Source: Arcobacter sp. (GTDB taxonomy: Bacteria > Campylobacterota > Campylobacteria > Campylobacterales > Arcobacteraceae). From it: a DNA stretch of 64,000 bases. The DNA lies in the NCBI GenBank assembly GCA_003252105.1, contig QKDL01000085.1:1106-65105 (forward strand). The letters are read 5' to 3'. Positions 33,643 through 37,693 of this stretch are shown piece by piece. The position numbers and the translations under genes were made by a program. The notes below the pieces were generated by a model that made no database searches, had not been told where the DNA came from, and saw only the letters and a program-made list of their open reading frames with translations. Numbering within the stretch: position 1 is the stretch's first letter; each line of letters opens with the position of its first letter.

Positions 33643-34269
33643 TTAAGCAAATATATCATTTGTTTTGTTATTTGACTGAGAACTACTATTTTGTTCATAT
33701 TGATTTTTGGCATTTTGTGAATACTCATCAGAGTTTGAAATCTTATCTTGAATCTCTTTTGCAAACTCTTGTTGGGCTTTCATCATCATAACCCTAGCCT
33801 TTGAAGCGATTGAAAGATCTTGTGGACTAGGATCAGCTGGCGCTAAAGCTGTTGCAATCACTCCTTGTAGATTAGAAACCGTTTCTTGAGGAGTTGAACC
33901 AGTTTCAATACGTACAGGAACCTCACCACCAACAGCATACATAACCCCATCAGGACCCTTTTCATAAGTAAAAGAAGCTCCACCAGAAGCAGCTGGACCA
34001 CTTTGATGAGCTGCCTCATGAGCTCTTACTTTAGTATCAACTGCTTTAAGCTTAGATAGTTCAACTCTCTCATCTTGGGTTAGTTGTGTATTATCTTCGT
34101 TTTCTTGATTTTGATTGTTCTTAGACTCAGTAGCAGAATCGTTTTTTTCAACACCACGTGTATCTTGCTGCACCCCTTGTTGATTTGTTACAGCTTGTTG
34201 TTGAGCATTTGCCCGTGAAAAATAGTCGACGTTGTAGCCGAAGGTAGACGTGTAATTTCCTATTTCCAT
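33643..34269 (-). CDS. SprA-related putative metalloprotease
   Basis: VRAHEAAH (HExxH), GPDGVMYAVGGEV, ALAPADPSPQD. Confidence 0.8.
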   Translation of the reverse strand: MEIGNYTSTFGYNVDYFSRANAQQQAVTNQQGVQQDTRGVEKNDSATESKNNQNQENEDNTQLTQDERVELSKLKAVDTKVRAHEAAHQSGPAASGGASFTYEKGPDGVMYAVGGEVPVRIETGSTPQETVSNLQGVIATALAPADPSPQDLSIASKARVMMMKAQQEFAKEIQDKISNSDEYSQNAKNQYEQNSSSQSNNKTNDIFA

Positions 34270-34360
34270 AGTATAAATTTTATAAGAAGAAAAATTAAAA
34301 ATAAAGATGGTGGAAAAATTAGTTTTTAAAAATTAAAAAATATACTCTACAAACAAAAAT

Positions 34361-34897
34361 TTATCTTCCAACTTTAAATCCCATCACCTTTTCTTCTGTT
34401 TTTTTGGTATCTTCTAAAATCTGCTGTAGATACTCAAGGGCTAGTTTTATGTTTTTTCTATTTTCTAATGTTTGGTCTTTATGAAGTTTATTATCCTCTT
34501 TTATAGTATTTATCTCTTTTACTAAACTTTCATAAGATAAAGCAAATTCACGTATTTTTGTAAATGTTCTCATTATCGCTTTTGTAGTTTCAATTGCTAT
34601 ACTACTATTAATTACTGTTGCTAGCATATATACTCCTTGCTCAGTAAACACAAAAGGTAAAGTTCTAGCTCCACCCCAACTTGAAGTGACAAATTGGCAC
34701 TTCAAGATTTCAAACTCTTCTTTTGATAATTGAAACATAAAATCCTCATCAAAACGCTCAATATTTCTTTTAACTTGTCTGTTTAAATATTTTGTTTCTA
34801 CACCATATAGTTTAGCTATGTCTGATGCAAGCATAACTTGTTTGCCTCTTATATTATAAATCTTTGATTGGATTTGCTCAGATGGTAGATTTATCAT
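34361..34897 (-). CDS. ORF6N domain protein
   Basis: IRGKQVMLASDIAKLYGVET..LNRQVKRNIERF..DFMFQL; PFVFTEQGV. Confidence 0.88.
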   Translation of the reverse strand: MINLPSEQIQSKIYNIRGKQVMLASDIAKLYGVETKYLNRQVKRNIERFDEDFMFQLSKEEFEILKCQFVTSSWGGARTLPFVFTEQGVYMLATVINSSIAIETTKAIMRTFTKIREFALSYESLVKEINTIKEDNKLHKDQTLENRKNIKLALEYLQQILEDTKKTEEKVMGFKVGR

Positions 34898-35044
34898 GAT
34901 TACTCCTAAATTTTTTTGAGTATATCATTATAATTTAAGTAATTATATTTTTATTGCAAAGTGTAATGTTTTAATGTATTGGAAGAAGATTTAAACAGTG
35001 CTCAAATATTTTGATAATAGCTTTAACTGTATGCAGTTGTCTTG

Positions 35045-35285
35045 TAGAGCGAGGCTCTCCGCTTTCTCACTTTTTAATTGTAAAAAGTAAGACAAAAAGC
35101 AACCAGACGAGTTGTTGAAGCTAAAGTTCCCTACAGTTCTTAAATAAGTTTTCTGACCTGCGGGACTCCTTCCTAAACGTGACATTCAGTCACCTTTATC
35201 CAGTCAAACATCTCCTCGGTCTTTTCCGAAAATTATTTAAAAACTTCCGGCTTCAACAAAGTCTGGACAAATTCTCTAGCCACGA
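35045..35285 (-). ncRNA. Structured non-coding element A (multi-stem)
   Basis: long-range stems 35250-35266/35103-35121 and 35218-35244/35136-35158, hairpin GTGAC/GTCAC; G-U pairs favour the minus strand; GC-richer than flanks. Confidence 0.5.
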
Positions 35286-35354
35286 ACTTTCTGATGTAAA
35301 TTTAACATAACACCAATTCAAATAAAATGGTATAAAAAATTGCAAAAGTCAATT

Positions 35355-35570
35355 TCCCCTTTCCCGCATTTGAGAAGCCGAGTGTTTATTTATCTCTTTT
35401 GAAAACAAGTGACTAAACTGTTTGAAGCGTAAAGAAATGTGCTGGGAGCACATTTTAGCAAGTTTTTAGGCACTCAAAAGAGATAATTAATAAACGAGGG
35501 AACCTTCGGCTTCGAAACCTGTGGGATGGTTTCTTTGCTACTTTCTTTTTCATAAAAGAAAGTCGATAGA
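35355..35570 (+). ncRNA. Structured non-coding element B, same architecture as A
   Basis: GAAGCCGA/TCGGCTTC, TATCTCTTTTGA/TCAAAAGAGATA, AAATGTGCT/AGCACATTT, ACTTTCTTTT/AAAAGAAAGT. Confidence 0.5.
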
Positions 35571-35606
35571 AATTAAGACATATAGTAAAAGTTTATTCAA
35601 AACATA

Positions 35607-36500
35607 CTATACATTAACTTTCTCTAACTCCTTATATTTTTCAATTATAGTTTCATTTTTACCAAATGCTTTTATATTATATTCCAATAATCGTTTTTCT
35701 ATATCATTATTTAATCCTATATGTTCAAAAAATTCATAATTTTCTACTAGTTTTTTAAATTTTCTTTTTCCAATAGTTCCTAAACAATGATAAAATAAGA
35801 ATTCTAATTCGTCTTTAGTAAATTGTGCTCTATAAATATTTATATATTTTTGTTTATCTTTAATGTTACTTTCATTTATAAGTTTAAGTATTTGATAAAT
35901 TAAACCAAAATATGTACCTGTAAACTTTTCATGATATTTATTAAATAAATCATAATCTATTTTAAACTTTTCAGTTTTTAAACTTTTCAAATATCCTGAG
36001 ATTACAGTAATCCCTTTTTCTTTAATATTAGCAATATCTTTCATTTATTCTAATAATGAATCATCTACATATCCACCATTTACTAATACTTTACCACTTT
36101 TTGTAGTTACTATTTCAAAAAAGAATGATTCCCTTGTATGTAGAAAAACATTATTTAATTGAAAAAATGTGTTTTCAAATATTTGTAACTTAGTAGCTTT
36201 ATTTTTTAACTTTAATGATTTTGCTTGTTTTTTTTGATATTCACCTGAATTTTTAAATTCTGTTACTACTTGATTTAATTCTTTGGATTGAAGTTCAATA
36301 GTTGTCAATAAAGCAATAAAAGCCATAAATGCTAAAATAGGGTTTAATACTCCTCCAAAATAGTCTCCAAACTCTGCCCAAGTAGATTGTTTTCCAGACA
36401 ATCCATATATACCAAACTTAGCTAGATAAAGTATTAACACTGAAAGTATAATAAATACTGCTACAAACTTATATCTTTTCAGTTTTGTTTCTAAATCCAT
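35607..36500 (-). pseudogene. Putative phage abortive-infection protein (putAbiC-like) split by an in-frame TAA at 36045-36047
   Basis: FGDYFGGVLNPIL..FENTFFQL in the 5' ORF, YRAQFTKDELEFLFYHCL in the 3' ORF; both ORFs share one frame. Confidence 0.65.
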
Positions 36501-36540
36501 ATATTCCTCCTAAAAGAAATTTTATAATATTTATTTTTTA

Positions 36541-36632
36541 AGGTCAAGGCAGAGATTGAGTTTTATGGAGGAGCTTACTAGAAGTAAGTGAGTCCATAAA
36601 ATTTAAGCGCCAACGCAGAGATTGGCTTGTGT
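36541..36632 (+). ncRNA. Structured non-coding element C (multi-hairpin junction)
   Basis: TTTTATGGA/TCCATAAAA enclosing CTTAC/GTAAG; GCCAA/TTGGC hairpin with CGCAGAGA loop. Confidence 0.4.
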
Positions 36633-36648
36633 TTACACTCTCTTTGAG

Positions 36649-36675
36649 AAAAAGAGACTTTAGAAAATCTCTTTT
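36649..36675 (-). terminator. Intrinsic terminator of nrdAB
   Basis: AAAAGAGA..TCTCTTTTT at the nrdB stop. Confidence 0.6.
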
Positions 36676-37693
36676 AGAAATCGTCGAAGTCGATTGAACC
36701 TTTAGAATAATTAACAACATTCCCTTCAAAGAAATTCGTTCTTTGATCATTAAACGATGCATATCCATCTACCCATGGAATAGGGTGCTTCACATTGTAC
36801 ATAGGAGCGTATCCTACTGCATCTAGTCTTTTATCTGCTAGATATTGGATATATTGAGTGATAATACCATCTGTAAACCCTAGAATTTGCCCTTGAGTGA
36901 TATATGCTCCCCATGAAGCTTCTAACTCTACTGCTCTTCTAAACATTGCTCTTACTGTCTCTTCTAACTCTTTTGTAAAAAGTTCTGGTCTCTCTTTTCT
37001 TGTTGAGTTAATCATATTTTGGAAAAGTAAAAGGTGCGTTACTTCATCCCTTTGGATAAATCTAATCATTTGTGATGAACCTAACATTTTTCCTGATTTA
37101 CCAAGTGCATACATTGCTGCAAATCCTGCATAAAAGTAGATACCTTCTAAGATTTGGTTTGCAAACATTGCTAAAACAATTTTTTCATCAGTAATTCCAC
37201 CTGCAAGGTTTTTATATACACCTGCGATATAATCATTTTTTTCTCTAAGCTTAGCATCATTTTTCCACATATCATAGATAAGGTCTGTATTATCTGAGAT
37301 TGATTCAACCATAACTGCATATGATTTTGAGTGGTTAGCTTCTTCGTATGATTGTCTTGAAAGACAAGCATTAATCTCTGGAACTGTAATATATGGGTTA
37401 ATATTATCCATTAAGTTATTTGTTTGTAATGAATCCATAAAGATTAATTGCGATAATACTAAGTCATACATCCTTTTTTCTGCTGGTGATAAGTACTTAT
37501 AGTCTTTTGCATCCCCTGTCATTTGTACTTCTCTTGGAAACCATGTATTTGCTTCCATTGTATCCCATAGATTTAAAGCCCATTGGTATTTCATTCTTGT
37601 AAAGTTAATCATACCATCGGGATTACCACCAAAAATTCTTCTATCGTTTAATTTCTCTTTTGATTCTGGATTGTAAATAAGTTTTCTTGACAT
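36674..37693 (-). CDS. nrdB: Ribonucleotide reductase class Ia beta subunit
   Basis: [33 protein letters not shown]. Confidence 0.93.

Follow-up and report, generated by a model that had tools for sequence, protein, structure and literature searches.

The locus described here lies in a 64,000-nt stretch of contig QKDL01000085.1 (assembly GCA_003252105.1; below, "the window"), which belongs to a Halarcobacter genome of 3.02 Mb with 28% G+C. Between nrdB, encoding the small subunit of ribonucleotide reductase, and a SprA-related gene, the window holds an islet composed of an ORF6N-domain gene, a putAbiC-like gene and three structured non-coding stretches, which we call units A and B and element C. 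The first-pass annotation had placed the same two genes and three stretches between these anchors, and all of them were found there. Its description of the stretches has to be amended in one respect: all three are real, but A and B are homologues in inverted orientation, 5' end towards 5' end, and not two independent kinds of element. From 33643 to 37693 every gene is on the minus strand, and the search for tRNA and tmRNA genes found none. The features are listed in the order in which they would be read from nrdB (ORF, open reading frame).

36674-37693, minus strand: nrdB (PF00268, 1.1e-79), left anchor of the slot
36501-36673, minus strand: element C, the conserved nrdB 3' region, a 173-bp non-coding stretch between the putAbiC-like gene and nrdB, with hairpins, a promoter-like site and a Shine-Dalgarno sequence
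36609-36626: terminator-like hairpin in element C
about 36565-36600: conserved hairpin in element C, held by compensatory changes
36547-36519: promoter-like TTGACC-17-TAAAAT in element C, found by motif scan and pointing into the first cargo ORF
before the AbiC start: AGGAGG Shine-Dalgarno sequence in element C
35607-36500, minus strand: whole putAbiC-like gene, two ORFs in one reading frame with a single in-frame TAA
36048-36500, minus strand: its N-terminal half (151 aa), a hydrophobic membrane part
36045-36047, minus strand: the in-frame TAA, with an ATG directly after it
35607-36044, minus strand: its C-terminal half (145 aa), starting at that ATG
34898-35606: 709-bp non-coding stretch between the ORF6N gene and the putAbiC-like gene
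35356-35570, plus strand: unit B, an inverted diverged paralogue of A (model R1, 74.6 bits, E = 4.7e-15, full length), converging on the AbiC 3' end
35273-35355: central doublet spacer of about 85 nt with outward promoter-like motifs TGgTATAAA (plus strand, for B) and TTTACA-18-GAGAAT (minus strand, for A)
35061-35272, minus strand: unit A, a structured element of about 210 nt (model R1, 214 bits), co-oriented with nrdB, the positionally conserved copy
34898-35060, minus strand: 3' flank of unit A and ORF6N leader, with hairpins AGAGC..GCUCU and AACUG..CAGUU
34361-34897, minus strand: ORF6N-domain gene (PF10543, 5.7e-37)
33643-34269, minus strand: SprA-related gene (PF12118, 6.7e-24), right anchor

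The variable slot downstream of nrdB

nrdB was located in 25 genomes of the genus, and the 6 kb downstream of it were taken from 20 of them. The gene is single-copy in all 25 (81-97% identity), and the SprA-related gene is the right anchor, by synteny, in 10 of 21. In nearly all of the 20 related Halarcobacter genomes, nrdB is followed by a different first gene. putAbiC genes fill the slot in four genomes, including G018, G008 and G022; G005 has HEPN_AbiU2, G009 an ORF with a weak PD-(D/E)XK match, G006 an IS110-family element, and G017 a Schlafen AlbA_2/HATPase_c_4 protein gene followed by an ORF6N gene. About a dozen of the slot ORFs are without any family match. The closest relative, G002, whose nrdB is 97% identical, has neither AbiC nor ORF6N, and in G001 a CYTH gene stands directly after nrdB. 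Conserved flanks around differing, defence-enriched cargo are what distinguishes a defence hotspot, and this is the pattern seen at the nrdB slot.

Since vertical conservation of the interval fails in this 20-genome comparison, with the cargo after nrdB swapped in almost every related genome, the accessory nature proposed for the islet stands. Of the two signs of exchange that the synteny of the nrdB-SprA interval was expected to reveal, swapped cargo was seen, while no pairs of filled and empty sites were found between this genome and its relatives.

The ORF6N protein matches PADLOC models of the candidate single-gene defence PDC-S05: PDLC04856 at 1.4e-63 over residues 4-175 of 178, a full-length match, and two further models of the same group. 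One PDC-S05 representative with a RhuM domain lowered plating of T7 and T5 on E. coli B about 1000-fold (bioRxiv 10.1101/2024.09.26.614923). Among the genus genomes compared, only G017 has a homologue at the nrdB locus (88% identity). We regard the ORF6N gene of the window as a candidate anti-phage defence gene.

The putAbiC-like gene has a less simple status. Its two halves are collinear, end to end, with intact homologues of 284-330 aa in three related genomes, the N-terminal half aligning with residues 1 to about 150 of the G018, G022 and G008 proteins. The C-terminal ORF carries PF16872 (putAbiC; 1.2e-22, residues 38-109) and is matched in PADLOC by AbiP (8e-7) and AbiC (2e-4). AbiC and AbiP have been grouped as one family of membrane-anchored proteins, and AbiP is reported to bind RNA in preference to single-stranded DNA (PMC13064643). 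The window gene resembles the lactococcal proteins in its putAbiC domain and hydrophobic N-terminus; it differs from them in showing only remote identity and in being split by a stop codon, while an AbiC/AbiP protein is one continuous chain with an N-terminal transmembrane part and a C-terminal domain. The split gene may be inactive, or its two halves may be made as separate polypeptides.

In about 17 of 21 genus genomes element C is conserved after nrdB, even before unrelated ORFs, and its hairpin is kept together with an invariant GCCTTGACCTT, some 17 nt beyond which lies a TAtAAA-like sequence. In G006, G011 and G009 the conservation reaches the Shine-Dalgarno sequence and the unrelated ORFs begin beyond it: within one subgroup, TCTCTTTTAGGAG stands directly before the starts of AbiC in the window and of ORFs of 304 aa in G006, 149 aa in G011 and 204 aa in G009. 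From this we infer that element C combines the 3' end of nrdB with a promoter directed outward and a ribosome-binding site, which would serve whichever ORF fills the slot.

Within the element C of the window there is a 22-nt insert (about 36628-36649), which is missing from 16 related genomes. The corresponding 21-22-nt sequence, CTCAAAGAGAGTG(C/T)AA(G/A)CACA, has six copies in the genome (window 36628-36649, C1:9204, C25:1073, C28:34497, C91:53473 and C93:173). In C28 and C93 it breaks into B units at different places, and it behaves like a tiny insertion element.

On the other side of the cargo, a unit on the nrdB strand, or a remnant of one, follows the first cargo ORF in 15 of 21 Halarcobacter genomes. 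In six of these slots (G019, G009, G006, G011, G005 and G008) the cargo stop codon is at most about 25 nt from the first base of the unit or overlaps it by up to 36 nt, and in the single-copy genomes G019 and G011 the nrdB-linked unit is the only one. Two species of another genus (g30) have one unit each, likewise after nrdB and a variable ORF (203 aa and DUF4145-like; 70 aa), and these units start 5-6 nt after the stop codon of that ORF. Since the same layout with such tight ORF-unit junctions recurs in a second genus, the arrangement of nrdB, C block, one ORF and a structured unit predates the genus, and the nrdB-linked unit A is best read as the ancestral, syntenic copy. The window departs from this ancestral pattern in two ways: unit B and the spacer are placed between AbiC and unit A, and a second cargo gene, ORF6N, between unit A and SprA.

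The structured units and their tail

The covariance model R1 was built from 26 copies of the conserved core. Since it matches both A and B, on opposite strands, they are inverted homologues across the spacer; a reading of A+B as one 600-nt single-strand unit was rejected because the model shows B to be inverted. At every locus examined the two units are on opposite strands; they form a divergent doublet, and it is as such doublets that the family has multiplied in this and other genomes. Arrays have the order <-B A-> <-B A->. Conservation of the spacer motifs holds within the genus and is only partial in other genera. In this genome the doublet copies also preserve the stretch at 34898-35060, which on the plus strand reads like a terminator.

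The fold consists of a closing stem, a long rod with internal loops, an inner hairpin and a 3' hairpin. Within the genus 97% of it is paired and 34 of 57 pairs are changed on both sides; in the other genera this rises to 50 of 57 pairs. None of 500 shuffles reached either value, and slid controls gave 40-54% pairing. In the shared helices G.U pairs favour the minus strand by about 27 to 7 over the plus strand (our own tally of G.U against A.C), which argues that the functional strand of unit A is the nrdB strand. The orientation of units relative to GC skew is 13 versus 6, a split too small to decide. We infer that the structured element works as an RNA.

Several known kinds of RNA or gene were considered for the units and set aside. 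No hallmarks of a group II intron were seen; a type I toxin mRNA or small-protein gene was rejected because, read by eye, no conserved ORF survives the indels between copies; and a CsrA sponge, suggested by the many GGA motifs, was dropped because these motifs are not conserved.

After the closing stem each unit has a tail formed by a pyrimidine tract, a short linker and a hairpin with a pyrimidine 5' strand and a purine 3' strand. The three segments covary across units in at least seven matching variants, given here as tract, 5' strand and 3' strand; in the window this three-way covariation concerns 35061-35120 (A) and 35520-35570 (B).

CUUUUU, CUUUUU, AAAAAG: unit A
CUUUU, CUUUU, AAAAG
UUUCUUU, CUUUCUUU, AAAGAAAG: unit B of the window, also read as UUUCUUU, CUUUCUUUU, AAAGAAAG
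UUUUUUU, CUUUUUUUU, AAAAAAAAG
CUUCUUU, UUCUUUCUU, AAGAAAGAA
CUUUCUU, UUCUUCUUUU, AAAAGAAGAA
CUUCUUUUU, UUCUUUUUCU, AAGAAAAAGAA

Such covariation is what a major-groove triplex of U.A-U and C+.G-C triples predicts, and the tail presumably forms one. To our knowledge, the triple-helix motif is hardly documented in bacterial RNAs. The nearest likeness is to the ENE triple-helix elements of PAN and MALAT1 RNAs and of transposon transcripts, where, too, changes in a pyrimidine tract go together with changes in a pyrimidine-purine helix at the 3' end of the RNA; this likeness would fit a protection of that end. The tail of the units departs from them in combining the pyrimidine tract, the pyrimidine strand and the purine strand within a single short segment, in lacking poly(A), in its bacterial host and in having a triplex that is predicted only.

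Distribution, neighbours and mobility of the units

With model R1, the family was found in 47 of 121 Arcobacteraceae genomes, belonging to 12 of the 22 genera sampled, and was absent from the other 74; carrier genomes have from one to at least 20 units. Of the other Campylobacterales genomes sampled, only one has it. Rfam gave no match, either for the whole window at gathering cut-offs or for the element at E up to 10; an 18-mer from the element had no match in IMG/VR, and the plasmid and phage collections had none to the element. By its sequence, this is an uncatalogued and undescribed, many-copy structured RNA family. 6S RNA, which is expected as one copy in nearly every genome and whose place in C. 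jejuni and H. pylori is upstream of purD (PMC3847290), was rejected as its identity, since RF00013 has no match in this genome and the element is multicopy and missing from so many genomes of the family. More similar in habit are the TwoAYGGAY RNAs of Pseudomonadota (RF01731), many-copy structured elements of unknown function that occur between genes, often as divergent doublets and near other repeats, and of which an extended form exists (bioRxiv 10.64898/2026.09.22.753630). The units of the window differ from them in their fold and phylum, in lacking AYGGAY loops and any Rfam match even at the relaxed threshold, and in having a syntenic copy next to nrdB.

In this genome the repeat seen at about 35001-35602 has at least 12 full doublet copies (78-90% identity) in addition to partial ones, about 23 units altogether. 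The other copies are flanked by genes that show no relation among themselves. Several are housekeeping genes (carA, greA, rplT, cysS, a hydrogenase subunit), and between greA and an rlmI-like gene a unit stands without any cargo. Others are defence-like or of toxin-antitoxin type: an RHH-ParE pair between two doublets, HicB, TIR/SEFIR, a DUF4143 ATPase, DUF2726 and DUF2971. In comparison with the close relative G002, extra or different cargo starts right at the unit end, and the extra cargo of G002 is flanked there by a short imperfect repeat of the terminal motif. An association of the family with variable, defence-like genes elsewhere was thus repeatedly seen, as the first-pass annotation had anticipated, in a qualitative sense.

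Two cases of this kind may be described. Two paralogous PtuB-like HNH genes (C19:15658-17981 and C4:63-1334) directly abut A/B doublets, and this genome has no further paralogue; homologues in G003 and in another genus likewise abut units. For a relative, the match to PADLOC PDC-M62B is at 8e-71, and in C19 the HNH gene overlaps an upstream ORF of 491 aa, which suggests a Septu-like two-gene system. In C28:34061-36344, 3' of carA, two doublets surround 1.1 kb of cargo (a YxzE-like small protein and the RHH-ParE pair), and at the same carA site G017 has two adjacent doublets with different cargo.

Other observations concern the repeats themselves. Many copies are at contig ends (C68, C2, C54, C51, C93, C45, C84, C4), showing that the repeat breaks the assembly; one doublet links C2 with C51, to judge by the orthologue in G002 (L025). 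A second kind of mini-insert is a 19-nt hairpin, GCCTGCAAGCAGGATTACA, in the tail hairpin loop or the rod of some units (C19:18118, C91:58604, C25:968; L004, L063). A perfect hairpin repeat of about 37 nt, GAGCCAATAAATTACCC..GGGTAATTTATTGGCTC (C25:22092, C1:5982, C25:125; L063 2437-2506 and 7392-7460), is found at gene 3' ends and, in G002, at borders of variable cargo, and looks like a REP-like terminator family.

The first-pass annotation had offered, as one possibility, that the structured elements are RNA partners of the Abi protein. In such a scheme they would be the antitoxin or sensor of an AbiC/P-like effector, in the style of type III toxin-antitoxin systems, and the abutment of unit B on the AbiC stop codon as well as the RNA binding of AbiP (PMC13064643) speak for it. 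The distribution has already largely refuted it, and we consider it very improbable. The same element follows unrelated ORFs (AbiU2; unknown ORFs of 149, 204 and 123 aa; a DUF4145-like one), some 20 loci of this genome have units without AbiC, and the intact AbiC genes of G018 and G022 have beside them only unit remnants of 23-33 bits. Moreover, type III systems of the ToxIN/AbiQ kind have tandem repeats of about 35 nt upstream of the toxin gene; none were found here, and the units are 210 nt long and downstream.

One can also suggest that the A/B doublet is a selfish, non-autonomous repeat of the REPIN/BIME or MITE kind, devoid of host function and settled, like accessory genes, in permissive gaps at gene 3' ends, so that its association with cargo is incidental. 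Copy numbers that run from none at all to over 30 among species of a single genus, doublets and alternating arrays recalling BIMEs, the targeting of units at fixed positions by an IS110-family element, the many copies at contig ends and the unrelated flanking genes all agree with this. The units further share with the REP, BIME and REPIN repeats of enterobacteria and pseudomonads the intergenic position at gene 3' ends, the alternating array, targeting by IS110-family insertion and a plausible role as stabiliser of mRNA 3' ends. Yet they are about 10 times longer, while REP-type repeats are short palindromes with a RAYT transposase, and they have conserved loops, a strand asymmetry and no correlated RAYT (Y1) transposase. 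One copy holds its place after nrdB across genera with the fold intact; the loops and the three-strand tail are conserved; and neither a target-site duplication nor terminal inverted repeats nor a matching transposase turned up for the doublet. That several copies have orthologues in other species implies that they have moved little in recent times. We consider this explanation unlikely.

Potential mobilisers were sought in several places. There is no recombinase ORF in the window interval, and in 20 syntenic intervals the only transposase is that of the IS110 element in G006. Y1 transposases (PF01797) occur sporadically, in 8 of 16 genus genomes, and are absent from G006 and G009, which carry 5-8 copies; a RAYT (Y1) enzyme was rejected as mobiliser because it does not correlate with unit copy number.

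An IS110-family element of about 1.3 kb (327-aa DEDD transposase) is inserted four times in G017 at the same position, about nt 72, of B units (L052 7976-9274, L055 2003-3305, L058 357-1659, L059 2061-3359), and is also present in A units of G006 (L049 2251-3222) and G002. This repeated insertion at one position indicates that the structured units are a specific target of the element. Its transposase was rejected as the mobiliser here, since it targets units in those three genomes but is absent from this one.

The proposal that the three structured elements act as recombination or mobilisation ends is not supported by these comparisons, as neither a recombinase nor att or core-site repeats nor empty-site pairs were found; the earlier statement that att repeats are lacking is borne out, the outer ends of the A-B unit sharing only a degenerate similarity of about 20 nt. 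The three elements are also not equivalent: C is the nrdB 3' region, A the ancestral syntenic unit and B an inverted paralogue of A. Nor are they bound to cargo as ends would be, given the cargo-free copy beside greA.

A more specific form of this idea is a cassette system, in which the unit would be a folded single-strand recombination site like attC, ORF-plus-unit cassettes would be exchanged, and element C would be the landing site and promoter. The likeness to integrons (Pc, attI and ORF + attC) is real in several points. The cargo is an ORF without its own promoter, fused to a fixed, predicted upstream promoter and Shine-Dalgarno sequence and ending 0-20 nt from the unit in several genera; the fold after it is strand-specific; arrays of units occur; the extra cargo of G002 has the imperfect terminal-motif repeat at the unit end; and the cargo is rich in defence genes, as it is reported to be in sedentary chromosomal integrons (bioRxiv 10.1101/2024.07.02.601686). 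Against it, no integrase or other site-specific recombinase accompanies the units in the window interval or in the 20 syntenic intervals, where the G006 IS110 transposase stands alone, the Y1 transposases are sporadic and uncorrelated, and the IS110 transposase is missing from this genome. An attC site measures 57-141 nt and has R''/R' core sites (RYYYAAC/GTTRRRY); our unit is a multi-helix element of about 210 nt with conserved loops and a triplex-like tail, no core sites of that type were seen in it, and its closing-stem sequences GTTGAAG/CTTCAAC, by reading, do not fit. Finally, about 20 loci of the genome have units, some of which stand alone between housekeeping genes, and no filled/empty pairs were found. 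Such a system seems to us decidedly unlikely.

A probable old defence slot with a putative RNA element

The reading that we prefer, with a probability of about 0.55, is that the locus is a small islet of anti-phage defence, sitting in a variable slot that is old and found throughout the family, where the cargo next to an RNA element is exchanged through homologous recombination. The cargo ORF would be transcribed from the element C promoter together with unit A, which would form the 3' end of the cargo transcript and either cap and stabilise it or end it. In the doublets each unit would be transcribed outward from the central spacer. After DNA uptake, the cargo would be replaced by recombination between the nrdB/element C flank on one side and the unit A/SprA flank on the other, with no dedicated site-specific machinery involved.

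Several points weigh against this interpretation. The putAbiC-like gene is interrupted, so that part of the islet may be inactive. The defence-gene enrichment beside units is judged qualitatively, from examples. The promoter role of the spacer motifs is a prediction, no conserved promoter was found at a fixed distance before solo units, and no U-run was seen after the tail hairpin. A single DNA strand could form the same triplex as the RNA. Lastly, one would not expect homologous recombination by itself to yield cargo that is cut so closely to the ORF, and it is these very tight boundaries that keep an integron-like, site-specific alternative alive.

A bolder possibility, which we hold to be distinctly doubtful, is that Arcobacteraceae have in this locus an undescribed plug-in expression chassis for single defence ORFs. 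The promoter and Shine-Dalgarno sequence after nrdB and the triplex-tailed RNA of about 210 nt, starting a few bases beyond the stop codon of any inserted ORF, would frame the ORF, the doublets would seed more landing sites for defence genes elsewhere on the chromosome, and the RNA or the folded DNA strand would capture and exchange cassettes, in an integron-like manner without integrase.

In the preferred reading, the general type of the locus, a defence hotspot, is a known one; its compact and ancient architecture is unusual. Like the defence islands and the P2/P4 model, it has conserved flanks around cargo that differs in nearly every genome and is rich in single-gene proteins of abortive-infection type. 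Unlike them, the nrdB slot is chromosomal and persistent across genera, and usually holds one bare ORF, preceded by a conserved predicted promoter and Shine-Dalgarno sequence and followed by a structured RNA element.

The locus offers a concrete, testable case of small defence genes slotted into the chromosome between a promoter block and a folded RNA, an arrangement kept across genera. The ORF6N protein and the intact homologues of AbiC/P can be taken straight into phage-defence assays. The analysis also uncovers a widespread, uncatalogued structured RNA family in Arcobacteraceae, which carries a triple-helix sequence signature at its 3' tail. Should this RNA turn out to stabilise or gate the transcript ahead of it, one would have in it a reusable expression part; a role in cargo exchange would make it a new route of gene capture.

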